Assembly: GCA_963705505.1 (NCBI GenBank)
Contig: CAVPJU010000006.1
Coordinates: 32,001-96,000, forward strand
Length of the DNA stretch: 64,000 bases
Direction: 5' to 3'
Source of the DNA: an uncultured bacterium
Lineage (GTDB): Bacteria; Desulfobacterota_D; UBA1144; Nemesobacterales; UBA2774
Shown here: positions 5,860 through 52,129 of the stretch, piece after piece
Numbering within the stretch: position 1 is the first letter of the stretch
How the letters are laid out: every line of letters starts with the position of its first letter
Translations under genes and position numbers: made by a program
Notes under the pieces: generated by a model
Seen by the model: only the letters and a program-made list of their open reading frames with translations
What the model was told of the DNA's origin: nothing
The model's database searches: none

Positions 5860-6582
5860 TCAGGTGATTGACTGGGACTCGATTTTCTTTTGCTCCTCTC
5901 TATTCTTTAGCTCAACCATGACGTGAAGCATGCGCTGGATAGCGGTGTACGAAGAGAACACGAGCATCAATAATAACGCGAGCTTGAGCAGATAGTCGTC
6001 GGGTCCGTAGCCGAGCGACTCCGTAAGCATGTTGCCGAGGAAATTAAAAACCGAAAGCACCCCCAGGTACACGACCCTTTCGGCCCTCTGCATTACGCCG
6101 ACTTCGCACTTGACGCCGAGCCCCTCAGCCCTTGCGCGTGTATAGCTCACCATGGTGGTCGAGACGAGTATGAGGAAAACCACATATGAAAAAATAGTGT
6201 CCCGAAAAAAGCTCAGCAGGCCCAGATATATGAAGGCTTCAGAGAATCTGTCGAGGCAGGAATCGAAGAAGGCGCCGTGCTGGCTGCTGAGACCCTGAGC
6301 CCTCGCAACGCGCCCGTCAAAAATATCGAACGTCGATCCTGCGAGCACAAGCACTCCCCCCGCAAAAATCCAGCCGTAGTGGTAAAAGAGCCCTGTAACC
6401 GCTGCGACGACGAGCGTGGAAACGGTAAGGACATTCGGATGAATTTTTATCTTGAGGAGATAATCCTCTATCGGCAGCATGAGCAGGAGCCACCACGTCT
6501 TTATACCGCTTCCGAGAAGTGTCGTAGACTCCGGCCTTTTCTTGTTTTTAGATCTTTCCGTTATCTCTTCGGGATGGGTCAT
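5860..6582 (-). CDS. CDP-alcohol phosphatidyltransferase (PgsA/PIP-synthase-like)
   Basis: Family motif DIFDGRVAR...GAFFDSCLD, plus VSYTRARAEGLG; start at 6582 is my estimate. Confidence 0.9.
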   Translation of the reverse strand: MTHPEEITERSKNKKRPESTTLLGSGIKTWWLLLMLPIEDYLLKIKIHPNVLTVSTLVVAAVTGLFYHYGWIFAGGVLVLAGSTFDIFDGRVARAQGLSSQHGAFFDSCLDRFSEAFIYLGLLSFFRDTIFSYVVFLILVSTTMVSYTRARAEGLGVKCEVGVMQRAERVVYLGVLSVFNFLGNMLTESLGYGPDDYLLKLALLLMLVFSSYTAIQRMLHVMVELKNREEQKKIESQSIT

Positions 6583-6708
6583 ATTATTTTTTCCATTATT
6601 AAAATGATACGGCAATTCCGGGAATAACAATATCCGTTTTAGATTTTTCAAGCAAGCCGTGCCGATGTAATATAACCGAGCCCGATTAAGCCTCTCCCAG
6701 CCGAAAAA

Positions 6709-8334
6709 TCAATCATTTTCGGACACGAAGACGGATTTGATAAAGCGCTCCTTTCTTTTTAAGCCGTCGGCGTACGAAGCGGCTTCTTCCTTGGTAGGAA
6801 ATACGCCCACCCTCACCCTGTACCATTTACCCTTGCCCGGAATATCCGCAGGGACGACGAAAGCGTCGTATCCCTTTTTCTTAAGCCTGGCCGCGATTCC
6901 GTCCGCATCCTCCTTTTCCCTCGAGGACGCGACCTGCACGGTGAAGCTCCCTTTGGGCTTTGACGCGGCGAGATTCTCTTTCACGCTATCGCTGACCGTC
7001 CGGGGAACCGCGTCGCTTGACGAATCGCCTGTAAATGAAGCCAGGAGCTGACCTTCGAGAATCGCGGCTTTCGAGCCGCTATCGACTACGCCGGTATGGT
7101 CGATATTATTACTCACCGGGGAAGGGGAAACCGCGACTTCGGGTTCCTTTTTCACCGCCTTTTCGGGTTCGGCTTTTATCGGGCTTTCCGTTATGCTTTC
7201 TTCGGCTATGACTGCCGCGCTGCTCTCTACGGCCGGGGACTCGGGTGCGGAAGGCTCTCCGGTCATAGAGTTTTCCAGCCGGACGGGAGACTCCATTTGC
7301 CTTGCCAGGATAGTCCCTTTTTCCTCATTCGAGATTCCGACCGAAGCTGGTGAAGGGGGGGGCGCGACCGGCTCGACTCGTTCGGCCGGCTCAAGCGTCT
7401 CCTCGGCTTTAATGCTCTCAAACGAAAGTGTCCGGGTGGTAGCAGGGAGCTCTCTTTCCGTGATTCCGCCCTCGGGCATCTTCTTTTCGGCGGCGGGCTC
7501 ATCCGCAGCCCTCGATGCCGCGGCAGGGGCAGCGGGGGGCCCGCTCACGACCTCGCCACTGGTAACGGTACGGCTTTCGGGAACCGCGCCCGCCTCGCTA
7601 ATTTTCATCACCTGGAGGCACGTAAACGGCCGTTTCACTACTACATTCCGTTCCGTCAATACCACCTCCACCGAGCCTACTATATCGGGAGGGCTTTCAA
7701 AGACGAGCTTTCTCGGGGATTCGGCAAGGACATTCGCTTTTTCATTGCCGATTTGAAAATCAGTCGTGGCAAAATCTCCGTCGAAAGGACCCTTTATTTC
7801 AACGAGCCTCCCTGCCTGTCCCACGAGCGGACACTGATAGTCATACGGCGAAGGCGTCCCGGAATTTTCCCTTACGGATGAGGACAGGTTTATAGGCACG
7901 GACGCGCTGCCGAGAGACTTCATAGAATTATTTCTGAGAGTGAACTTCATCTTGGTCCCGGCCATGTTCCTCGGGACGTTTATTTTGACGGTTTTGGCGC
8001 TGACAGGCACGTTAAAAAAACTCGTTTCGATGATGAAGCTGTTAAGGATAGTCAGATTGTTATTCTTGATACTCTGAGTGCTTCCGGAGGGATAAGCTCT
8101 TATCGCGGCAGAGACCGTGTCGCCTGCGGCGATATCGTCAGGCAGGAAGAGCTTTACACGGCCTTCCGGTATTTCGAAATCGACGACGCGGACTCCGTTT
8201 GCGGCGTCCTCGGAGCTTGAAGCTATGGTCAGGCCGAATAGGAGAAAAGAGAGTAGAACAGCAAGAGGTATTATGACCCTGACGCCTTCTTTGCCTATTA
8301 TCATAACCTGTCTGCCGAACCCGGGTTTATACAC
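6709..8334 (-). CDS. Exported SPOR-domain protein with an unknown N-terminal beta-rich region
   Basis: Hydrophobic N-terminus, Pro/Ala/Glu-rich linker, C-terminal FTVQVAS...WYRVRVG SPOR motif. Confidence 0.8.
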   Translation of the reverse strand: MYKPGFGRQVMIIGKEGVRVIIPLAVLLSFLLFGLTIASSSEDAANGVRVVDFEIPEGRVKLFLPDDIAAGDTVSAAIRAYPSGSTQSIKNNNLTILNSFIIETSFFNVPVSAKTVKINVPRNMAGTKMKFTLRNNSMKSLGSASVPINLSSSVRENSGTPSPYDYQCPLVGQAGRLVEIKGPFDGDFATTDFQIGNEKANVLAESPRKLVFESPPDIVGSVEVVLTERNVVVKRPFTCLQVMKISEAGAVPESRTVTSGEVVSGPPAAPAAASRAADEPAAEKKMPEGGITERELPATTRTLSFESIKAEETLEPAERVEPVAPPPSPASVGISNEEKGTILARQMESPVRLENSMTGEPSAPESPAVESSAAVIAEESITESPIKAEPEKAVKKEPEVAVSPSPVSNNIDHTGVVDSGSKAAILEGQLLASFTGDSSSDAVPRTVSDSVKENLAASKPKGSFTVQVASSREKEDADGIAARLKKKGYDAFVVPADIPGKGKWYRVRVGVFPTKEEAASYADGLKRKERFIKSVFVSEND

Positions 8335-39565: not shown

Positions 39566-41488
<1,923 letters not shown>

Positions 41489-41611
41489 TTAATGCAAATT
41501 AAATACCCCCGGCCCGATAAAACTCCTAAATGATAGTATAAAAGTTATGGCGGTAAAGCGCAATGAAAGCCCGAATTTGTGAACGTTCAAGCGTCCTGTA
41601 AACTAATCGGC

Positions 41612-42649
41612 ATGTCTGATTTAGTATTGGGGATAGAGACTTCCTGCGACGAAACGGCTGCAGCCGTGATCGAGGGCGGAAGGAAGGCGCTCTCGAACGT
41701 CGTCGCGTCTCAGGTGGATATTCATAAGGAATACGGCGGCGTAGTGCCGGAGATTGCGTCGAGAAAGCACGTCGAGCTTATACTGGCCGTAATAAAGAAA
41801 GCACTGACGGCGGCAGGCAAGGACGCGGAAGAGCTTCGAGGGATTGCGGTTACGAACGGACCGGGGCTAATCGGCGCCCTCATGGTGGGGCTTTCGACCG
41901 CAAAGGCTTTCGCATACGGCCTCGGCGTCCCGCTCATCGGCGTGAACCACCTGGAAGCCCATCTGTCGGCTGTGCATCTGGAGCACGACGTGGAGTTCCC
42001 GTTCGTGGGCCTGGTCGTTTCGGGAGGACATACGAGCCTCTATCTGGTAAAGGACTACACGGAATTCGAGACGCTCGGAAAAACCAGGGACGACGCCGCG
42101 GGGGAGGCTTTCGATAAGGCCGCGAAGCTCCTCGGGCTCGATTATCCGGGCGGAGTTGCGATAGACAGGCTCGCAAAAGAGGGGGACCCGGAGGCGATCG
42201 CCTTTCCGAGACCGTTCAAGAGCTCCTCGTCCCTCGATTTCAGCTTCAGCGGGCTTAAGACCTCTCTCGTGTATTATCTGAGGAAGCATCCTGACCCCGA
42301 TGACGCGCAGCTGAAAGACATATGCGCCTCCTATCAGGAAGCGATAGCCGAAACGCTCGCTGACAAAACGCTGCTTGCGGCAAAAGAGTACGGCGTCAAA
42401 TCCGCCGTTATTTCAGGCGGAGTGGCGTGCAATTCCCGGCTGAGAACGATCGCAGGGGAAAGGTTCGGGGAGGAGGGGATAACGCTCCACATACCGTCGC
42501 CCGTATACTGCACCGACAATGCTGCAATGATAGGGGCGCTCGGCGCAATGAGACTAAGACAAGGGGAAACTTCCGAGCTGAATATAAATCCCTATTCCAC
42601 TTCCCGGCCTAAGTACATCAGGGGAAAGGGAATGGTAAAAAACTCATAA
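41612..42649 (+). CDS. tsaD: tRNA threonylcarbamoyltransferase TsaD
   Basis: GIETSCDET, GGVVPEIASRKH, NHLEAH, SGGHT, DFSFSGLKT, CTDNAAMI. Confidence 0.97.
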   Translation: MSDLVLGIETSCDETAAAVIEGGRKALSNVVASQVDIHKEYGGVVPEIASRKHVELILAVIKKALTAAGKDAEELRGIAVTNGPGLIGALMVGLSTAKAFAYGLGVPLIGVNHLEAHLSAVHLEHDVEFPFVGLVVSGGHTSLYLVKDYTEFETLGKTRDDAAGEAFDKAAKLLGLDYPGGVAIDRLAKEGDPEAIAFPRPFKSSSSLDFSFSGLKTSLVYYLRKHPDPDDAQLKDICASYQEAIAETLADKTLLAAKEYGVKSAVISGGVACNSRLRTIAGERFGEEGITLHIPSPVYCTDNAAMIGALGAMRLRQGETSELNINPYSTSRPKYIRGKGMVKNS

Positions 42650-42661
42650 CACGCCCGCTTA

Positions 42662-42964
42662 TCAGTACTCATAATCGACTACAGCCCTGTCCGAGCGAAT
42701 CTCGCCCACGAAACCGACGATTTTCAGATGCTCCGGATGGTTCTGATACGCTTCAAGCCCCTCCCTGTCCTCAAACTCGGAATATAAAACCACGTCGAAG
42801 GCGGCCGGGGATGTATTAAAATTAATCCCGACCTCGACGGCGACTATCTCCTCTATCACTCCGTCGAGCGCCTCGAGCGCAGCTTTCAGTTTTCCCGCGT
42901 TCTCCTCTTTAGAAGCTCCGGCAGCGAAATCCTTGAGCCTCCACATCACGATGTGTTTGATCAT
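42662..42964 (-). CDS. Dabb family (stress-responsive alpha/beta barrel) protein
   Basis: MIKHIVMWRLK, YQNHPEH, RAVVDY. Confidence 0.9.
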   Translation of the reverse strand: MIKHIVMWRLKDFAAGASKEENAGKLKAALEALDGVIEEIVAVEVGINFNTSPAAFDVVLYSEFEDREGLEAYQNHPEHLKIVGFVGEIRSDRAVVDYEY

Positions 42965-43187
42965 AGATGCCTCCAGCCTGATCGATACGATACTGCCCCA
43001 TAGCAATCGGAAAACCGTCATTGACAGTTTTGATTTTTTGTAAGGAGCAAATAGAATTATAGTACTGAAGATAATATTCCTTTACAAAGGGGAAGAAGGA
43101 AGACCGCTTAAATCCCGAAGTGATATGACCGACGGCTAAACTATATTATAAACGAGAGTATTCGTACGCATCCGGGGAGAGAACACG

Positions 43188-45254
43188 TTGGCAGTGACTG
43201 AAAGCGAAGAAGCAAAAAAAGGGAAGAGGACACAGGACCTCAGGATCGTAGGGTGGCTCTATTCTTTTACGGGACCTCACCGGGCTCTCATGGTCATTGC
43301 CCTCATATTGATGATCCTGAGCGCGCTCCTAGAGCTCGCAGTACCTTACATAACCAAGATCGCGGTCGATAAGTATATCTATCCTTCATGGGGAATCGCC
43401 AATTTCAAAGATAACGAAAGGGATAAGACATTTGAACAATCCATAAGGGACAAATACGCTTCTCTGGTAATACCTCTCGGCGGGAACTCATACCTCGTCG
43501 ATATGTCCGGACTCGATAACGCCGACAGGACCAACCTCGAAAAGCTCGGAATGGTCACGAAAGAGAGATACCTTGTTATAAACCAGAGGGACACCAATGA
43601 GGACAAGCTCGTCAGGCTAAGGGAAATCATAAAAAGGAACGGCGGGCTTTTTAAGAAAGCCGATGATATTTACTATATTGACTATGCCGCTCTCAAGGAG
43701 CTCGGCAGGAACGACCTCCTCATCCTGAGGAGCGACGAAATAAGGGAAGTGATTATCCTTTCGGCTCTGGTATTCGCGTGCCTGACCGGAATCTTTATAT
43801 TCAGCTCGCTCTTTACATACCTGCTCAACTACTCGGGGCATAAAATAATGCATAAGATGAGGACGGACGTATTTTCTCATATATTGAGCCTGCCCCAGTC
43901 TTTTTTCGATAAAAACCCGGTCGGCAGGCTCACGACAAGGGTGACTAACGACATTAACGCCATTAACGAGATGTACACATCCGTAGCCGTCCAGTTCTTT
44001 AAAGACGTTCTTGTGGTCATAGGCGTCTTGGTAGTCATGTTCTATATGAACAGAGAGCTCACTCTCTTCGTCACGCTCTTCACAGTGCTCATGATGTTTT
44101 TCGCGGGCCTTTTCAGGATGAAGCTCAAGACCGTATATAGAGACGTCAGAAGGTCGATCGCCAAGTTAAACGCGTTCGTTCAGGAGAGTGTAAGGGGAAT
44201 CGTACTGATAAAGCTTTACAACAGGGAAATGGAAAATTTTGAAAAATTCAAAGAGACGAACAGGGAGAACTTCAAGGCGAACATGGACCAGCTATGGGTG
44301 TATGCGACCTTCAGACCGTTTATCGAATTCATGAGCGTGTTCACAGTCGCGTTTATACTATGGTACGGAGGACTCAGCGTGCTCAAGCTCGAACTCACAC
44401 TGGGCGCGCTCATCGCGTATCTCTACTACGTGAGAATGCTGTTCCGTCCGATCATGGAGCTCGCGGAAAGGTATAACATATTTCAATCCGCCACGGTCGC
44501 GAGCGAAAACCTTTACGAACTCGTAAACGTGGCACCGGAGCAGAAAGAGGGTATAAGGGAAGCTGTCGTAAAGGGCCAGCTTGAATTTAAAAACGTCTGG
44601 TTCTCATACAACGACAAAGACTGGGTCCTCAGAGACGTATCTTTTGCGATAGAGCCCGGAGAGACCGTGGCGCTAGTCGGGCTTACGGGATCGGGCAAGA
44701 CAACGATCGTCAATCTGATACTCAAATTCTATGACGCGCAGAGGGGACAGATACTGTTCGACGGCACTGACATAAGGGAGATCAGCACCGAGTTCCTGAG
44801 AGGGAACATCTCTGCTGTATTCCAGGACCTCTTCTTGTTCGGTAAGAACATATCCGATTCCGAAGACGACGGCTTCTCGAAGGCGATACAGATAGACCAG
44901 ATAAAGACTAACGGGAATACTATATCTTCAGGGGAAAAGCAGCTCGTCTCACTGGGACAGGCGTTTTCCAAAAGCTCGAAATTCCTTATACTCGACGAAG
45001 CGACTTCGAATATAGACGCCAGGATCGAAAGGAATATTCAGAAGGCGCTCAGGAACGAAGCGCGGGACCAGACTACGCTGATTATCGCTCACAGGCTCTC
45101 GAACGTAAGACACGCCGACAGGATCATGGTTATACATAAGGGCGAGATTTCAGAAACGGGCACGCATTCGAGCCTTCTTTCAAAAAAGGGGATATATTAC
45201 AACCTCTACGAGCTGCAAAACGAGATACAACGCTTTTCCCTGTTATCGGACTAG
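43188..45254 (+). CDS. ABC exporter, fused TMD-NBD (MdlB-like heterodimer subunit)
   Basis: FFDKNPVGRLTTRVTND, GLTGSGKTT, ISSGEKQ, LILDEATSNID, IAHRLS. Confidence 0.9.
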   Translation: MAVTESEEAKKGKRTQDLRIVGWLYSFTGPHRALMVIALILMILSALLELAVPYITKIAVDKYIYPSWGIANFKDNERDKTFEQSIRDKYASLVIPLGGNSYLVDMSGLDNADRTNLEKLGMVTKERYLVINQRDTNEDKLVRLREIIKRNGGLFKKADDIYYIDYAALKELGRNDLLILRSDEIREVIILSALVFACLTGIFIFSSLFTYLLNYSGHKIMHKMRTDVFSHILSLPQSFFDKNPVGRLTTRVTNDINAINEMYTSVAVQFFKDVLVVIGVLVVMFYMNRELTLFVTLFTVLMMFFAGLFRMKLKTVYRDVRRSIAKLNAFVQESVRGIVLIKLYNREMENFEKFKETNRENFKANMDQLWVYATFRPFIEFMSVFTVAFILWYGGLSVLKLELTLGALIAYLYYVRMLFRPIMELAERYNIFQSATVASENLYELVNVAPEQKEGIREAVVKGQLEFKNVWFSYNDKDWVLRDVSFAIEPGETVALVGLTGSGKTTIVNLILKFYDAQRGQILFDGTDIREISTEFLRGNISAVFQDLFLFGKNISDSEDDGFSKAIQIDQIKTNGNTISSGEKQLVSLGQAFSKSSKFLILDEATSNIDARIERNIQKALRNEARDQTTLIIAHRLSNVRHADRIMVIHKGEISETGTHSSLLSKKGIYYNLYELQNEIQRFSLLSD

Positions 45255-45274
45255 CCGGACGGCGCTTCCGCAAA

Positions 45275-46483
45275 ATGGACACCATGGAATTTATCTCCTT
45301 AGAAGAACAAACGGAACAAGTCGCGGCATATCTGAGAAGAAGGGAGGACTTCACGGGGCACGACCTCGGTATAGTCGTCTCCCCATACCGCATCTCCCCC
45401 CTCGGAGCGCACATAGACCACCAGGGCGGACCCGTGCTGGGGATGACAATCGACGCCAGAACGCTCCTCGCATTCATACCGAATAATGAGAAAAAAGTCC
45501 GCCTATACAGCATGAATTACCCCGGAGTCGCCGAATTCGCCATCGACAATGTCAAGACCCCGGCGAGGGACGACTGGGGAAGATATGCGATGGGGGCTGC
45601 GAAGGTGATGAACGATCTTGGCGGCGTAGAGACGGGGTTTACGGGCGCTCTTTACGGGACACTGCCCGCCTGCGGGCTCAGCTCCTCCGCATCCTCGGGG
45701 CTCGCCTGCCTGAGGGCGCTCGCGTTCGTTAACCGTATCAAACTATCGCCCGGGGACTACGTCGAGCTCGACCGGAGGATAGAGAACGATTATTTGAAGC
45801 TCTCAAACGGCATCCTCGACCAGTCATCGATCGTCTACGGTAAAAAAGACAATCTTATATACATCGATACGAACACCGGGAATACGGCCGGGTATCCGAG
45901 ACCGGAAAGATCCGAAGCGTTCAGGATCATGATCGCCTACTCGGGCATACCGCGCGAGCTCACCTCCTCCGGGTTTAATACGCGGGTCGAGGAATGCAGA
46001 AAGGCTGCCGGGCTGCTCGGCATAATGGGAGGGCTGAGGTCGGCAAAAACGCTCTCTTACGTACCTGAGAAGGTGTACCGGGAAAAATCGGAAAAGCTTC
46101 CCGATGAGCTCAGAAGGAGGGCGGTCCATTATTTTACGGAAGTCGAGCGTGTAACCATGGGAGTAGCCGCCTGGAAGATCGGCGACATGGAAACTTTCGG
46201 AAAGCTCATGAACGAATCGTGCGAGAGCTCGTTCGTGAATTACGAAGTCGGAAGCCCCGAGCTCATATACCTCCAGAAAATTGTAAGCTCGACCGGAGGG
46301 GTTTACGGGAGCAGACTGAACGGCGGTGGCTACGGGGGCTCGCTGACCGCATTCGTAAGGAAAGATTTCTCCCGCGAATCCGCAGAGGGGATATTAGAAC
46401 AGTACACGAACGCGTACCCGCAGCTCACAGAGAGCGCCCGGGTATATTTTGCGGAACCCGACGACGGGCTAAGGCTATTATGA
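45275..46483 (+). CDS. GHMP sugar kinase, galacturonokinase-like
   Basis: SPYRISPLGAHIDHQGG, GLSSSAS, NGILDQ, SRLNGGGYGG. Confidence 0.85.
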   Translation: MDTMEFISLEEQTEQVAAYLRRREDFTGHDLGIVVSPYRISPLGAHIDHQGGPVLGMTIDARTLLAFIPNNEKKVRLYSMNYPGVAEFAIDNVKTPARDDWGRYAMGAAKVMNDLGGVETGFTGALYGTLPACGLSSSASSGLACLRALAFVNRIKLSPGDYVELDRRIENDYLKLSNGILDQSSIVYGKKDNLIYIDTNTGNTAGYPRPERSEAFRIMIAYSGIPRELTSSGFNTRVEECRKAAGLLGIMGGLRSAKTLSYVPEKVYREKSEKLPDELRRRAVHYFTEVERVTMGVAAWKIGDMETFGKLMNESCESSFVNYEVGSPELIYLQKIVSSTGGVYGSRLNGGGYGGSLTAFVRKDFSRESAEGILEQYTNAYPQLTESARVYFAEPDDGLRLL

Positions 46484-47256
46484 TAGCGATCCTATTATGC
46501 GCCGGCTTTGCCACGAGGATGGAGCCTCTTACAAAAGATACACCGAAGGCCCTGCTGGAAGTCGGGGGGAAACCCGTCATCGACCACTTAATCGGGCAAA
46601 TCCTGGAGCTAAGCAATTTGGATTCGATCTACATCGTGACGAACGACCGCTTCTTCAAACACTTTCTTGACTGGGGTGAAAGGAGCGAGGGGGCGATAAC
46701 GGAAAGAGGGATAAGCCTTCACATATATAATGACGGCGTCGAAAGCCCTGAAAGAAGACTTGGCGCTGCGGGCGATCTGGGATTCATGGTGAGCTCCCTC
46801 CCCGAAAACAAAGGGGCGCTCGTCGCGGCGGGAGACAATATCTTTCGCTTCCCGCTCAAGCCCTACTGGGAAATATTCATGAGGGAAGATAAAAGCTATG
46901 TGCTCGCACTCAAAACTCAAGACACGGAAAAGCTCAGAAGGACCGGAGTGCTCGAGCTTGGTCAGGATGACCGCGTAGCGGCTTTTCATGAAAAGCCCGA
47001 GAACCCCCCATCGAGCTTTGCCTGCCCTGCCCTTTATTTTCTTAAACCCCGCTCGCTCGATCTGGTTCATGAGTATCTGTCGTCACCCGATGCCAGAGAC
47101 GAAATCGGATATTTCATATCATACCTTGCCAAGCATGACGTTATACATGCATTCCGGGTCGAGGGGGAGGCTATAGACATAGGGACGATAGAGTCCTACG
47201 AGAGAGCTAAAAAAATCCTGTCCGAAGAGCCGGTCATATGTAGAGAAAGAAAGTAA
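46480..47256 (+). CDS. Sugar-1-phosphate nucleotidyltransferase
   Basis: LCAGFATRMEPLT..PKALL..GGKP; AGDN; DIGT; ATGA overlap with the kinase stop at 46480-46483. Confidence 0.88.
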   Translation: MIAILLCAGFATRMEPLTKDTPKALLEVGGKPVIDHLIGQILELSNLDSIYIVTNDRFFKHFLDWGERSEGAITERGISLHIYNDGVESPERRLGAAGDLGFMVSSLPENKGALVAAGDNIFRFPLKPYWEIFMREDKSYVLALKTQDTEKLRRTGVLELGQDDRVAAFHEKPENPPSSFACPALYFLKPRSLDLVHEYLSSPDARDEIGYFISYLAKHDVIHAFRVEGEAIDIGTIESYERAKKILSEEPVICRERK

Positions 47257-47309
47257 CTCGCAGGCACCAATCTATATTTTATCTTGATTCGCCTTCGTGA
47301 ATTTTGTAA

Positions 47310-47330
47310 ATATTTAGGTATGCTAAATAT
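47310..47330. promoter_or_regulatory. Palindromic operator upstream of the MarR gene
   Basis: ATATTTAG-GTATG-CTAAATAT with 8-bp inverted arms, just downstream of a candidate promoter (TTGATT at 47284). Confidence 0.75.
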
Positions 47331-47342
47331 GAGGAAGACCAT

Positions 47343-47960
47343 ATGTCCATTTTTGATCCCGTTTACAGGCAAAAAAATATAGGCGGACAGATAACCAGAA
47401 CCCTATTCCATATCGGCCAGGCGGTCAAGAACATATTCTGGGATAAAAGCAGGCTGGAGCACCTTACCCCCGCGCAGGTCAAATCCCTGCTCTTCATTAA
47501 TTACACGAGAAAAGACGCTATTACGATAGGGAATATAGCCAGGTATCTGACCTGTACGCCCGCAACCGCAAGCGGGGTAATCGACTCGCTCGAAAGGAAA
47601 AACCTTATATTGAGGTCAAGGGACACGACAGACAGGAGAAGGGTGCATTTATCGCTAACGCCGGATGGGGAAAGGGTCGTCGGCGATATCGAAAATATAG
47701 GTTATGAAATGGAAGAAATCATAAGGGAATTCGATCCCCGGGAACAAAAGATCCTGGAACAGCTTTTACTTAAGATCTCGGAAAAGCTTGCGGAAAGGGG
47801 CCTGATTTTTTCGGGCGACATCTGTACCGAGTGCTGTTTTTTCAAGCGGGACAGTCACTTAGGAGAGCTTAAGCCCCACTATTGTGAAAACCTTCACATA
47901 CTTCTGAGTGAAGAGGACATATGTATGGAATGTCCCCACTTCAAAAAAACTCTCAATTGA
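47343..47960 (+). CDS. MarR family regulator with a Cys-rich C-terminal domain
   Basis: wHTH (LTPAQ..TPATASGVIDSLERK..DRRRVHLSLT); C-terminus CTECCFF..HYC..CMECPH. Confidence 0.9.
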   Translation: MSIFDPVYRQKNIGGQITRTLFHIGQAVKNIFWDKSRLEHLTPAQVKSLLFINYTRKDAITIGNIARYLTCTPATASGVIDSLERKNLILRSRDTTDRRRVHLSLTPDGERVVGDIENIGYEMEEIIREFDPREQKILEQLLLKISEKLAERGLIFSGDICTECCFFKRDSHLGELKPHYCENLHILLSEEDICMECPHFKKTLN

Positions 47961-47981
47961 AATCATAAAATTTTTTAGTAT

Positions 47982-48020
47982 TATTATTTAGGTAACCTAA
48001 ATAATAGGTATACTAAATAT
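47982..48020. promoter_or_regulatory. Tandem palindromic operators upstream of the sigma factor gene
   Basis: TATTATTTAGGT-A-ACCTAAATAATA (12-bp perfect arms) overlapped by AATAATAGGTATACTAAATAT; same motif as 47310-47330. Confidence 0.8.
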
Positions 48021-48047
48021 CGTGATTATATTGAGATCGCCAATACC

Positions 48048-49163
48048 ATGAAGCTAAAACAACTAGCGGACATAGACGAGGAAAGCACCCTGACCGATTC
48101 GGATTTCAGCCCCGAGGGCGTTTCCGATGAGGAATTTGATCCCGGCCAGGATGAAGAGACGGAAGGCGTTGATGAGCCTCAAGCCCGTTTCTTCAACAAT
48201 AAGAGAGACATAACAGACCAGAACTACAGGCTACTTTACGCTTATTTCAAAGAACTCAACGATGAGACTCTTCTCAGCAAGCGCGATGAGGCTGTTCTCG
48301 CAGCAAAGATTAAGCTTTGCGAAAGCAGGGCAAAAAAAATCGCCGGGTTTCTAAATAAAAAGAGTGCCAGGAAGAATGGGAACCCCTCGTGGCATGAAAC
48401 CGTACTCGATGCGCTCGGCAGGTCCTATACAGCCAGGTCCAAACACTTTCAGGATAAGTTCATCAAGTCCAATCTGAGACTCGTAATCGAACTCGCCAAT
48501 AAATACACCGGGAGGGGGCTCCCTCTGACGGATTTGATCCAGGAAGGGAACATAGGGCTGATGAAGGCGGTAACGAAATTCGATCATACGAAAGGGTTCA
48601 AGTTCTCCACATATGCATCGTGGTGGATACACCAGTCTCTATCGCGGGCCGTCATGGAGCAGACGCACGTGATACTGATCCCGGTCTATCTCCAGGAGCT
48701 TTCAGCCAAGGTCTTCAGGGCAAAGGCGAAGCTGGAGCACAATACCGATAAGAATGCCGTGCCCGAACAGATCGCAAAAGAGGTGAATATGCCTCTCGAT
48801 GCCGTAACCACGATCTTGAAGGGGAACGATCTCGTAGTCCCTCTGGAGCTGCTGCCGGGAAACGAGGATTCCAAATCCTACCTCGACATAACTCCCGACC
48901 CCGACTCCAAGAGGCCCGAGTTTTATCTGACCATGAGATCGATCTACGATGAGGTAAGGGACTCGTTAGGCCTGTTATCCGAGAGAGAAAGGGACGTCCT
49001 CAAAATGAGGTTCGGTATCGATTATGAAAACGACCATAAGCTGGAACAGATAGCGGACAAATACGGCCTCAGCAGGGAGAGGATCAGGCAGATCGAAAAG
49101 GACGCGCTAAACAAACTGGCCGGGTCCGGGCGCAGCCATGTGTTGAGGGAATTCCTGAACTAA
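48048..49163 (+). CDS. Alternative sigma70 factor of the RpoD/RpoS-like group (no region 1.1)
   Basis: NLRLV, DLIQEGNIGLMKAV.KFD..KGFKFSTYASWWI, LSRERIRQIE; 371 aa. Confidence 0.92.
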   Translation: MKLKQLADIDEESTLTDSDFSPEGVSDEEFDPGQDEETEGVDEPQARFFNNKRDITDQNYRLLYAYFKELNDETLLSKRDEAVLAAKIKLCESRAKKIAGFLNKKSARKNGNPSWHETVLDALGRSYTARSKHFQDKFIKSNLRLVIELANKYTGRGLPLTDLIQEGNIGLMKAVTKFDHTKGFKFSTYASWWIHQSLSRAVMEQTHVILIPVYLQELSAKVFRAKAKLEHNTDKNAVPEQIAKEVNMPLDAVTTILKGNDLVVPLELLPGNEDSKSYLDITPDPDSKRPEFYLTMRSIYDEVRDSLGLLSERERDVLKMRFGIDYENDHKLEQIADKYGLSRERIRQIEKDALNKLAGSGRSHVLREFLN

Positions 49164-49288
49164 GTACTCCTGCTTTAAAACTTCAAGTAACTAAATCGCA
49201 GCAGGAAATAACTCTAGTAATATCCGGCTCTGAACATATCCGATTGAATTTGATTTAATCCGGGTGCGTGGATTAGGAACCAAAGGGT

Positions 49289-50230
49289 TTATGATGCCGT
49301 CCTGAATTGAATCGTATCCGGGAACGGGAACCTCGTGTGCTCTTCCTTGCCGTCCAGCTCCTCCACTTCATCGGCCCCGAATTCTCTCAGGCGGGAAATG
49401 ACCTCGAGGACTACCGTTTCTGGGGTCGAAGCGCCCGAGCTCAGGCCGACAACCATGTCATTCCTGAACATGCTCCTGTGTAGGTTATCAGCGCCCTCGA
49501 TGAGATATGCGTCTTTTACTCCGCTCGCCTTCGCGACCTCCACGAGGCGGTTCGAATTCGAGCTTTCGGGCGAGCCCATTATGAAGATAATATCCGACTG
49601 CGCGGCAAGGGCCTTAACCGCGTCCTGCCTGTTCTGGGTAGCGTAGCAGATGTCGAGCTTCGAAGGGCTCACTATTTTCGGAAACCTTCTCTTCAGTACT
49701 TCGAGTATGTCTTTAGTGTCGTCGACGCTCAGCGTCGTCTGTGTCACATAGGCGACCATATCGGGGTTCTCGAGGACAACCTCTTCTGCTTCCGCGACCG
49801 ATTCCACGACGACGACTCTCTCGGGAGCCTCTCCGCTGGTGCCTATCACCTCGACGTGATTTCTATGCCCGATGAGTATAATCGTGTAGCCCATATCGGC
49901 ATAATGCCTGACTTCGTTGTGCACCTTCGTCACGAGCGGACAGACCGCATCGACGACCTCAAGGCTCCTCCTCTCCGCCTCTTCGCGGACGGCGGGACTG
50001 ACGCCGTGGGCGCTGAATATTACCTTTGCCCCTTTCCGGTCGACCTCCCTGAGCTCTTCCACGAACCTGACCCCTTTATTCTTGAGGGACTCCACCACGC
50101 GCTTATTATGGACTATGGCATGGCGTACGTATATCGGGGGCCCATACATCTCGAGCGCGCGCTCGACAATTTCTATCGCGCGGTCCACACCGGCGCAAAA
50201 GCCCCTCGGTTTGGCAACTATGACACGCAT
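49289..50230 (-). CDS. ispH: 4-hydroxy-3-methylbut-2-enyl diphosphate reductase
   Basis: PRGFCAGV, SAHGV, DAVCPLV, QTTLS, ICYATQNRQ, SSNS, GASTP. Confidence 0.97.
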   Translation of the reverse strand: MRVIVAKPRGFCAGVDRAIEIVERALEMYGPPIYVRHAIVHNKRVVESLKNKGVRFVEELREVDRKGAKVIFSAHGVSPAVREEAERRSLEVVDAVCPLVTKVHNEVRHYADMGYTIILIGHRNHVEVIGTSGEAPERVVVVESVAEAEEVVLENPDMVAYVTQTTLSVDDTKDILEVLKRRFPKIVSPSKLDICYATQNRQDAVKALAAQSDIIFIMGSPESSNSNRLVEVAKASGVKDAYLIEGADNLHRSMFRNDMVVGLSSGASTPETVVLEVISRLREFGADEVEELDGKEEHTRFPFPDTIQFRTAS

Positions 50231-50357
50231 AAACATTCTCCCTCAATAATAATACTCTATTCCGGGGGGTCTTCACAGCCGAAAGCCTGTAACCGTCTAC
50301 TTATGTTTAACTGAAACCCCTATAAGCGATATTTGCAGCTTACAAAATAAACTGTGA

Positions 50358-51182
50358 CTATAGCATAATGCAATCTTCCAGAAACGAGTAAAACTCCTCT
50401 CTTTTATCCAACATTATCCAGTGAGACGCCACATTAAATTCCTTATATTCCAGATCATTTCTAATTAAAAACCTCCTTGCAGAATCCATAACCGGTCTTG
50501 TCCCGACACAAAAGATCTTAGGTATCACTAATTCTTTATAAGCGACGGATATCTCGTTATTTCCTTCCCGGTCTTCGGATTCAAACCTGCTGCATATCTC
50601 CACTGCCGTTTGGGCAAAGGCTTCGGGGGCACACTCGGTTACGGAATCAAAATATTTTATAGTCGAAGGGCTTTCGAAATCCTCAAGGAGATTCTTTTTA
50701 AACCCGCCTTCGTGGAGCCATTTGCCGAATTTTCTCATATCATGATTAAAATCCTCCAATACCCTGACGGCATTTATCGATTCGATTAGAGTGTCCCGTG
50801 CAATGCCTCCTTCGACATTCACAAACTTTTTAATCCTCCCATGATTATCATCACCGCATATTAACGCCCCCAGAATACCTCCGTAAGAATGACCGACTAA
50901 AATTATATCTTTCAGATCAAAGCGGCTTATTAGCTCCCGGAGAATTTTCATCTGACACGAAAATGAATAATCCGGGTTCTTCTTAACTTTTTCACTTTTA
51001 CCGAATCCGAGCAGATCCGGGACGATAATATTGTATTTACCCGGCATGCCGAAGGCGTCGAAGAAACACCTCCCGGACTCGCCTATTCCATGAATGAATA
51101 AAATCGGGGTGCTGCTGCGCTCATTTATCCTGTACCTGATAAAAATTTTGTGACCCAGCAAATTTATAAGTTCCGCTTTCAT
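50358..51182 (-). CDS. Alpha/beta hydrolase
   Basis: FIHGIG, PDLLGFGKS, GHSYG, SHW. Confidence 0.88.
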   Translation of the reverse strand: MKAELINLLGHKIFIRYRINERSSTPILFIHGIGESGRCFFDAFGMPGKYNIIVPDLLGFGKSEKVKKNPDYSFSCQMKILRELISRFDLKDIILVGHSYGGILGALICGDDNHGRIKKFVNVEGGIARDTLIESINAVRVLEDFNHDMRKFGKWLHEGGFKKNLLEDFESPSTIKYFDSVTECAPEAFAQTAVEICSRFESEDREGNNEISVAYKELVIPKIFCVGTRPVMDSARRFLIRNDLEYKEFNVASHWIMLDKREEFYSFLEDCIML

Positions 51183-51346
51183 GGTCAGTTCCCCGGTTAG
51201 ATTATTTTGAGGAGGAATTGTATCTTAATTCCCCGTTATGAATCGGCTCTTCCATTTTATATATAATTGTAGTATGGATTTTATTAACCGGGTTCCCGTA
51301 AAATTTCCATGATTGCCGGAACAAATCAAAAAACGAGGGTAACAGG

Positions 51347-52129
51347 ATGAGATTAAAAGATAAAGTAGCGATTATCACCGGGGGATCTTCCGGTATCGGG
51401 AAAGCTATAACGCTCGGATTTGTGAAAGAAGGGGCCAAAGTCGTAATAGCCGCGCTGCATGAGGAACCGTGCATGGAGGCCGTAAAGGAAGTGGAGGATA
51501 TCGGAGGCGAGGCTATGTATTACACGCTTGATGTCTCCGACCTGAGCAAGCATCGGGAATTAATGGATAAGACGATAAATAAATTCGGCAGGGCGGATAT
51601 ATTGGTGAATGACGCCGGTTATGCGAGGCGGGAGACCGTATTCGATGTGACACCCGAGAACTGGGACAAGATGATGGACATAAACCTGAAAAGCACTTTT
51701 TTTCTGTCTCAGAGTTTCGCTAAACAGGTCATCAAGCAGGGGACTCCCGGAAGGATAATAAATATCGGCTCCGTAGCGGGCGCGATGGACATGCACCCGA
51801 TCTCGATTGCCTACCACGCGGCAAAAGGGGCAGTAATCAACGTGACGAGAGTGATGGCGGTCGATCTCGCCCCTTACAACATAACGGTTAACTGCATAGG
51901 CCCGGGTTCCACGATCACGCCGCTGTCCGCATCAAAAAATCCCGAATACGATGATTACATGACACAGGGGATCCCCGAAGGAAGGAGGGGGAAGCCCGAG
52001 GATATGGTGCCGCCCGCGGTGATGTTCGCCACTGACGAAGCCGCTTATATTACGGGCCAGACTATATTCGTCGAGGGCGGGGCAATGTCCATTTATCTCG
52101 GGAAAAGCGAGCCCGATTTTAAAGCCTGA
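51347..52129 (+). CDS. Short-chain dehydrogenase/reductase
   Basis: TGGSSGIG, YHAAK, VNCIGPG, YITGQ. Confidence 0.92.
   Translation: MRLKDKVAIITGGSSGIGKAITLGFVKEGAKVVIAALHEEPCMEAVKEVEDIGGEAMYYTLDVSDLSKHRELMDKTINKFGRADILVNDAGYARRETVFDVTPENWDKMMDINLKSTFFLSQSFAKQVIKQGTPGRIINIGSVAGAMDMHPISIAYHAAKGAVINVTRVMAVDLAPYNITVNCIGPGSTITPLSASKNPEYDDYMTQGIPEGRRGKPEDMVPPAVMFATDEAAYITGQTIFVEGGAMSIYLGKSEPDFKA

Follow-up and report, generated by a model that had tools for sequence, protein, structure and literature searches.

The 64,000-nucleotide stretch of DNA analysed here (the window) comes from an uncultured, wetland-type bacterium of the Desulfobacterota_D lineage (assembly GCA_963705505.1, contig CAVPJU010000006.1, positions 32,001 to 96,000; G000:C6:32001-96000 in our numbering). 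It carries two overlapping genes, for a sugar 1-kinase resembling plant galacturonokinase (GalAK) and for a short sugar-1-phosphate nucleotidyltransferase (NT), which constitute a real, conserved gene pair. It is rather probable, judging by sequence comparison and gene order, that they encode a hexuronate 1-kinase and a nucleoside diphosphate (NDP)-uronate pyrophosphorylase, a plant-like salvage route with a different second enzyme. The source genome has a size of 2.88 Mb and a completeness of 93.6%, and its nearest public relatives are metagenome-assembled genomes (MAGs) labelled Thermodesulfobacteriota or Candidatus Dadabacteria. Genome and metagenome loci are designated below by L-numbers, and homologue cluster representatives by P-numbers. 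The pair consists of the following elements:

45275..46483, + strand: GHMP sugar 1-kinase of the galacturonokinase-like (GAHxDHQ) clade, 402 amino acids (aa) (open reading frame (ORF), Pfam, trees)
46480..47256, + strand: sugar-1-phosphate nucleotidyltransferase, 258 aa, PF00483 (NTP_transferase), RmlA/GalU-like fold (Pfam, 95 bits)
46480..46483, + strand: ATGA overlap of kinase stop and NT start (sequence)

Kinase signature and conserved residues

Three features within the kinase gene are referred to throughout:

45380..45430, + strand: sugar-binding signature SPYRISPLGAHIDHQGG, residues 36-52 (translation, alignment to 1s4e/1pie)
45407-45409, + strand: codon of Ala45, at the Glu position of galactokinase (GalK) (alignment to 1s4e/1pie, column counts)
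45974..45976, + strand: codon of Phe234, at the position of Tyr233 in L. lactis GalK and of the Tyr in plant GalAK (alignment)

The kinase ORF opens with two in-frame ATG codons, at 45275 and 45284. The 399-aa homologues align from query residue 4 onwards, which makes the second ATG the probable true start and the protein 399 aa long. Three Pfam domains were found, all above cut-off: PF10509 (GalKase_gal_bdg, 38.4 bits), GHMP_kinases_N (PF00288, 43.8 bits) and GHMP_kinases_C (PF08544, 29.4 bits).

An earlier reading made from the sequence alone (the sequence-only reading) had claimed that SPYRISPLGAHIDHQGG stands in place of the galactokinase motif GRVNLIGEHTDY, with Glu replaced by Ala. The alignments bear this out: the translation reads S36-PYRISPLGAHIDHQGG-G52, and Ala45 falls on the Glu of GEHTDY in HMMER alignments to the solved galactokinases 1s4e and 1pie. 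The Glu of the GalK signature binds the C6-OH of galactose. NGILDQ (residues 178-183) and NYEVG (residues 322-326), also named in that reading, are both present in the translation. Arg39, His46, Asp48 and Asp182 are retained in the same alignments, and Arg39 and Asp182 align with Arg36 and Asp183 of L. lactis GalK, which we take to be the catalytic pair of that enzyme.

The signature spans residues 37-50 as a PYRIxPLGAHxDHQ type, common to the plant rows P0169 and P0193. All 81 GAHxDH representatives share Ala45, His46, Asp48 and His49, and 80 of the 81 share Gln50, so that, by these column counts, the GAHxDH motif of the kinase is not a product of chance. The same five residues are invariant across alignment A1 (38 sequences, including one plant enzyme). 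The 17 GalK rows have 14 Glu, 2 Asn and 1 Asp in the Ala45 column. At residue 234 the GAHxDH clade has 45 Tyr, 34 Phe and 2 Leu, and the GalK rows 16 Tyr and 1 Phe.

Family placement of the kinase

HMMER was run exhaustively against 1.84 billion cluster representatives and yielded 657 matches at E ≤ 1e-30. Among the best 150 of them, PYR[IV]xP[LI]GAHxDHQ is present in almost every sequence scoring about 180 bits or more, and the first GEHxDY galactokinases are encountered at about 178 bits. Ten representatives were looked up; P0169 is a galacturonokinase of Camellia sinensis (41% identity and 238 bits to the query) and P0193 one of Tetracentron, while P0220 comes from Chara and P0171 from Spirogloea.

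Tree 1 (113 rows) comprised the query, six locus kinases and 106 of the best 150 representatives; the 44 omitted representatives, the Chara and Spirogloea proteins among them, fell outside the length range of 350-440 aa. Ninety-four GAHxDH rows, including the query and two plant galacturonokinases, were separated from 19 GalK-type rows with an SH-aLRT support of 100. Within them, the query's 27-row clade (support 100) and an 18-row group with the plant rows formed a 45-row clade (95). Tree 2 (100 rows, including 74 metagenome kinases) again separated the GAHxDH clade from GalK. Both trees are quick LG+G4 searches in which the deep order inside the GAHxDH clade is not secure. The plant rows sit among sequences of metagenome and unnamed assemblies, and plant GalAK may descend from a bacterial GAHxDHQ kinase family.

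All five NCBIfam galK equivalogs scored below their cut-offs with the query: NF003705 (204.9 vs 385), NF003006 (197.5 vs 443), TIGR00131 (178.9 vs 226.65), NF003472 (156.1 vs 499) and NF001816 (98.7 vs 509). Because of these scores, both trees and the 238 bits of the Camellia enzyme as against about 178 bits at most for galactokinases, the assignment of the kinase as plant-GalAK-like and not GalK is supported. The likeness to plant galacturonokinase claimed in the sequence-only reading is thus upheld, and the trees, a check of the kind that it had proposed, place the kinase with plant GalAK, apart from GalK. Its expectation that pipelines would write galK holds for NCBI, where homologues are named ‘galactokinase (family protein)’, but not for JGI, which already gives ‘galactokinase/galacturonokinase’ or ‘galacturonokinase’ for many of them.

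Nucleotidyltransferase and gene junction

The junction of the two genes reads CTATTATGATAGCG. The kinase TGA (46481-46483) overlaps the NT ATG (46480-46482), and TTATGATAG at 46478-46486 spans both, which confirms the stop/start overlap with a nucleotidyltransferase described before. The 4-base overlap (gap −4) recurs at many related loci and points to translational coupling of the kinase and the NT.

NCBIfam equivalogs for the NT are all far below cut-off, the best being AglF (86.1 vs 400) and rmlA_long (73.1 vs 320); on these scores the NT is not a member of any characterised equivalog. Among solved structures, the RmlA-like protein 3hl3 is its best match (E 1.4e-15). Homologues are named only ‘nucleotidyltransferase family protein’ or, at JGI, ‘glucose-1-phosphate thymidylyltransferase’, and an ESM Atlas search returned only unnamed bacterial NT clusters. 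Long homologues were also searched for; the five proteins obtained are all bacterial-type fusions, with no fish fusion among them. Being a PF00483 protein, the NT is not of the UDPGP family (PF01704), to which the UDP-sugar pyrophosphorylase (USP) of plants belongs. A PF01704 search of the source genome gave no match, and neither did its search controls.

Conservation of the gene pair

The kinase is followed by an NT of the window type in 11 of 18 evaluable Dadabacteria-type loci (L001-L007, L009, L010, L013, L018) and not in the other seven (L008, L011, L012, L014-L017); L021 is cut by a contig end. At four distant loci from Acidobacteriota and Chloroflexota MAGs (L019, L020, L022, L023), whose kinases are 35-45% identical to the query in alignment A1, a PF00483 gene lies directly after the kinase.

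Alignment A1 also served as the query for a metagenome scan, in which 80 loci were kept. Six were dropped because a contig end cut the kinase; 74 have a whole kinase ORF, two of these not being evaluable for the NT. The NT domain is adjacent, i.e., it starts at most 120 bp after the kinase stop or lies in the same ORF, in 55 of the 72 evaluable loci (12 of these NTs are cut by contig ends). At three more (L069, L082, L110) the NT is found about 400-660 bp further on; L110 was placed here and not among the adjacent loci because its junction match is an 18.7-bit fragment. Uninterrupted kinase-NT fusion ORFs of about 620-630 aa, with both domains near-complete, are present in L065, L067 and L080.

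A hidden Markov model (HMM) built from six kinase-linked NTs scored 320 bits with the NT of the window and 125-312 bits with full-length kinase-adjacent NTs; nine other PF00483 genes, used as a control, scored 15-100 bits. The survey of 120 genomes of the phylum (thresholds E ≤ 1e-60 for the kinase and E ≤ 1e-40 for the NT) revealed the kinase in 38, including 30 of the 32 genomes of the source genome's own family, and the NT in 19. Both genes occur in 18 genomes and are adjacent in all 18. Kinase-NT coupling is conserved across phyla, fusions included.

Proposed reactions

According to the interpretation favoured here, the kinase would phosphorylate free D-galacturonate (GalA) and/or D-glucuronate (GlcA) at O1 with ATP. 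The pocket with Ala45 and the DHQ triplet (instead of DYN) could accommodate the C6 carboxylate, and Arg39 and Asp182 would act as the equivalents of the presumed GalK catalytic pair. The coupled PF00483 NT would convert the uronate-1-phosphate and a nucleoside triphosphate, most likely UTP, to an NDP-uronate, which may be used by envelope or exopolysaccharide glycosyltransferases. UDP-GalA and UDP-GlcA feed capsules, lipopolysaccharide cores and exopolysaccharides.

The site of residue 234 presumably corresponds to Tyr250 of Arabidopsis GalAK, which discriminates GalA from its C4 epimer GlcA. A Tyr-to-Phe replacement at this C4-specificity site reportedly let the plant enzyme use GlcA as well. 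Because of Phe234, relaxed specificity (GalA and GlcA) seems as likely as strict use of GalA, and a GlcA-directed enzyme can also be envisaged.

Gene content of the host genome

No GalT or GalE domain was detected by Pfam and NCBIfam among the 15 ORFs neighbouring the pair (37.7-55 kb), in agreement with the earlier statement that no galT or galE is nearby. Nor did a search of the 93.6%-complete genome reveal GalT (PF01087), and the best galE match there reaches 211 bits vs a cut-off of 262; going by this gene content, the kinase is not a Leloir kinase. The genome contains five PF00483 genes and twelve SDR epimerase/dehydratase-like matches. Its tblastn search with UxaE, DctP, YdjC, BadF-type, Lar_N and second-GHMP-kinase queries gave nothing above 60 bits.

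Several observations weigh against uronate salvage by the pair. The query has Phe234 where the plant rows have Tyr, and thus lacks the tyrosine expected of the GalAK family. Fourteen of the 72 evaluable metagenome loci have no NT beside the kinase despite at least 600 bp of downstream sequence. Of the 38 genomes of the phylum with the kinase, 20 have no NT orthologue, and five NT-less genomes searched whole contained no orthologue (best match 38 bits). In a relative of the same genus, the NT beside an intact kinase (G082:C9:1437380-1438057, corresponding to L007:7297-7968) carries internal TGA and TAA codons and matches only from residue 31; this copy appears to be decaying. UxaC, UxaE, GH28 polygalacturonase and TRAP DctP were not found in the 93.6%-complete source genome, and MFS_2 gave only two weak matches, of 47 and 27 bits. 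The genome encodes a likely UDP-glucose 6-dehydrogenase (504 bits with the TuaD model, 450 bits with TIGR03026), so a de novo route to UDP-GlcA probably exists there. Neither a source of free uronate nor a consumer of NDP-uronate was visible in the genome searches. Finally, the matches listed by full-text literature searches concerned plants, animals and chemo-enzymatic work, with no study of a bacterial galacturonokinase or glucuronokinase among them; to this extent the claim that the route is uncharacterised in bacteria agrees with the literature.

The NT-less genomes and the stop codons of the G082 gene indicate that the kinase is kept without the NT in relatives, which hints at a second, NT-independent use of uronate-1-phosphate. 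Since UxaC, UxaE, GH28, TRAP DctP and GalT were not found and MFS_2 matches are weak, the pair is, by this gene content, part of neither hexuronate catabolism nor the Leloir pathway in this organism, and an anabolic role fits best. The two-step uronate salvage of the sequence-only reading is accordingly retained in part: the conserved kinase-NT coupling and the hexuronate genes near related kinases speak for it, whereas Phe234, the 20 NT-less genomes, the failure to find UxaC, UxaE, GH28 or TRAP genes here and the UDP-glucose dehydrogenase do not.

Neighbourhoods of related kinases

Pfam scans covered the ORFs beside the kinases, 39 of them at genome loci and 188 at metagenome loci. The tagaturonate epimerase UxaE adjoins the kinase at L020, L035 and L037, and the glucuronate isomerase UxaC at L038 and L081. 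TRAP receptor or membrane parts are located near it at L022, L063 and L110, and the representatives P0212 and P0280 are read-through DctM-kinase and NT-DctP products. GntR/FCD regulators adjoin the kinase at L020 and L022, and UDP-glucose dehydrogenase at L088; Lar_N proteins occur near it at L035, L037, L091 and L105, and GT2, pyruvyl transferase or Wzi genes at L069, L073, L074 and L087. Hexuronate genes recur in at least four separate parts of the kinase family but are not its sole context.

Another recurrent cluster, found at about 15 loci and L023, has the order epimerase, YdjC, (MFS_2), kinase, NT, BadF-type ATPase and either DegT or a ceramidase-like gene, and appears to be a distinct sugar-processing pathway with the kinase and the NT as its shared core. 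This arrangement was seen at L023, L044, L046, L048-L052, L055-L059, L065 and L067; its last gene may encode a PIG-L deacetylase. In tree 2, the query's 30-row clade unites the ABC-linked (ATP-binding cassette) Dadabacteria-type kinases (8 rows) with those of the YdjC/BadF cluster (21 rows), and loci with UxaC, UxaE or TRAP genes (L035, L037, L038, L047, L110) form the nearest outgroup of this clade.

The YdjC, PIG-L, DegT, BadF-type and epimerase genes around the sister clade are a further point of doubt, as they hint at other, perhaps amino-sugar-related, substrates. The pair could then be an anomeric kinase and NT for another sugar, such as an acetamido or amino uronic acid or another C6-modified galacto- or gluco-sugar, with its product entering a glycan or natural-product pathway. 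Bacteria do have kinase-NT pairs for unusual sugars, LmbP/LmbO being one. The 21-row sister clade, with its NAD-dependent epimerase, YdjC/PIG-L deacetylase-family, BadF/BadG-type ATPase, DegT and MFS carrier genes, would suit such a role, as would the GT2, pyruvyl transferase and Wzi genes beside other relatives and the Phe instead of Tyr at residue 234. The signature residues, however, are identical to those of the plant GalA kinase; UxaC, UxaE, TRAP and GntR/FCD neighbours are found in several clades, including the nearest outgroup; and, save for one generic epimerase, the amino-sugar-type genes have no homologue above 60 bits in the source genome. A different sugar is therefore considered unlikely, and hexuronates remain the favoured candidate substrates.

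Upstream transporter gene and local gene order

The pair is flanked by a transporter gene and a regulator gene:

43188..45254, + strand: ABC half-transporter, exporter type, BmrD-like, 688 aa (Pfam ABC_membrane and ABC_tran)
47343..47960, + strand: MarR-family regulator, after an 86-bp gap from the NT (Pfam MarR; syntenic in close relatives)

The ABC gene ends 20 bp upstream of the kinase. NCBIfam MsbA-type models for its product are all below cut-off, and the N-terminal 191 residues gave no match to a Pfam family. The protein has a conserved extracytoplasmic insert of about 125 aa between the transmembrane helices TM1 and TM2. An AF2 model of residues 1-240 (pLDDT 78.5) places an α/β domain in this insert. 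The best Foldseek matches were chain D of BmrCD from B. subtilis, with 7m33_D at E 6e-4 and TMq 0.45 and a range of E 6e-4 to 6e-3 and TMq 0.40-0.45 over this and related entries. A novel sugar-binding ectodomain was considered for the ABC protein and dropped, as the fold search pointed to BmrD.

The modelled domain between TM1 and TM2 and a second, shorter half-transporter in the genome would fit a BmrCD-type exporter, but identity is only 19-22% and TMq to the model of the upstream ABC protein is in the range given above. The BmrC-like partner gene is located at G000:C6:111205-112920, about 34 kb from the ABC gene and outside the window. It is 68% identical to the adjacent gene in L009, and the two half-transporter genes adjoin in L009, L010, L013 and L018. 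BmrCD is a multidrug exporter, and we know of no link between it and sugar activation.

At 19 of the 25 genome loci, the gene immediately preceding the kinase encodes an ABC protein. A promoter and terminator scan of 42600-48200 gave 10 promoter-like sites vs 5.4 expected and 5 terminator-like sites vs 5.4 expected, with no site between the ABC gene, the kinase and the NT. From the spacing only, we infer an ABC-kinase-NT operon.

The gene order in this region is ThiC, TsaD, Dabb, ABC, kinase, (NT), MarR, an RpoD-like sigma factor, IspH, a hydrolase and SDR. This block, with its flanks at 39566-42649 and 47343-52129, is syntenic in most Dadabacteria-type relatives (L001-L008, L011, L012, L014-L017).

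The arrangement allows for a kinase that works with the adjacent BmrCD-like transporter independently of the NT and might handle uronate or uronate-1-phosphate in connection with export, envelope turnover or regulation, the NT being an accessory that is often lost. Consistent with this are the position of the ABC gene in 19 of 25 loci, among them the distant and otherwise non-syntenic L009, L010, L013 and L018, its occurrence upstream of the kinase at the metagenome loci L036 and L068, and the 20 of 38 kinase-bearing genomes that lack the NT. On the other hand, all ABC-linked loci belong to one phylum, where inertia of gene order may be at work; outside it, in the loci examined, the kinase is never beside this ABC type and is usually beside an NT. 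The multidrug function of BmrCD and the MarR gene downstream fit an unrelated efflux unit. Moreover, in a report on a fish enzyme, pyrophosphorylase is the sole known user of such a uronate-1-phosphate, GlcA-1-P (PMC3938481). A partnership of this kind is quite improbable.

Finally, it is very improbable that the kinase is an ordinary, if divergent, galactokinase with a GalU-like enzyme uridylylating its product: the Pfam galactokinase signature domain, the galactokinases as best solved relatives and the NCBI name of some homologues are outweighed by the five failed galK equivalogs, the clade apart from GalK at full support, Ala for Glu in 81 of 81 clade members and the genome in which GalT was not found.

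Comparison with known systems

The closest counterpart of the proposed hexuronate kinase is plant GalAK (EC 2.7.1.44), with which it shares the GHMP/GalK fold, the GAHxDHQ signature and the tree clade (41% identity to the Camellia enzyme), differing in Phe234 in place of Tyr. Plant GalAK and USP follow the same logic of a kinase and then a pyrophosphorylase. In contrast to the UDPGP-family USP (PF01704), the second enzyme here belongs to PF00483, is 258 aa long and has a gene that overlaps that of the kinase. Galactokinases (1pie, 1s4e) have the same fold (E 1e-38 to 1e-40) and keep the equivalents of Arg39, His46, Asp48 and Asp182; they differ in GEHTDYN instead of GAHIDHQ, and the query falls below the galK cut-offs, belongs to a separate clade and has no GalT partner found in its genome.

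Salvage by an anomeric kinase and an NT is established in bacteria for N-acetylmuramic acid (MurNAc; AmgK-MurU) and L-fucose (Fkp). These systems share the same two-step bypass of de novo nucleotide-sugar synthesis, with adjacent or fused genes, but employ other kinase families or act on other sugars. No such pair for uronic acids came up in the full-text literature searches. To our knowledge, bacterial UDP-GalA and UDP-GlcA are thought to arise only via UDP-glucose oxidation and 4-epimerisation.

A broader proposal, in our opinion tentative and slightly on the doubtful side, is that of a dedicated hexuronate salvage module of many phyla, composed of a GalAK-type kinase and a small NT, sometimes fused. 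It would produce NDP-GalA or NDP-GlcA straight from free uronic acids and so bypass UDP-glucose dehydrogenase, would perhaps be ancestral to plant GalAK and would be wired to a BmrCD-like ABC transporter in the Dadabacteria-type lineage. If uronate salvage is the true function of the pair, it would provide a new entry of plant- or microbe-derived uronic acids into bacterial glycans, as well as compact enzyme pairs and natural fusions for the chemo-enzymatic synthesis of NDP-uronates. It would also help to place the origin of the plant pectin-recycling kinase and correct the annotations ‘galactokinase’ (NCBI, kinase) and ‘glucose-1-phosphate thymidylyltransferase’ (JGI, NT).

The zebrafish protein DrGKUP, a glucuronokinase/putative UDP-GlcA pyrophosphorylase, likewise combines a uronate 1-kinase with a short bacterial-type nucleotidyltransferase (PMC3938481). 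According to the same report, its kinase domain, a GHMP kinase specific for GlcA, differs greatly in sequence from GalAK, activity of the NT domain was not detected in vitro, and GlcA-1-P has no known pathway use other than by pyrophosphorylase (PMC3938481).

Minor observations on related loci

The metagenome locus L110 (L110:4333-7868) contains, in this order, a DctP fragment, a GalAK-like kinase, the NT (5980-6855) after an interval of about 400 bp, and a second GHMP kinase. The latter gene (6813-7868) overlaps the NT and is of HddA/sugar-kinase type (PDB 3k85, E 5e-11). Since the succession of NT and GHMP kinase matches the order in the fish glucuronokinase fusion, one NT may serve two uronate kinases at this locus.

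At two loci of another subclade (L053:4189-5991 and L054:2779-3381), NT-less kinases lie beside a fused ATP-sulfurylase/APS-kinase and a sulfotransferase. These neighbours may indicate a link to sulfated sugars.

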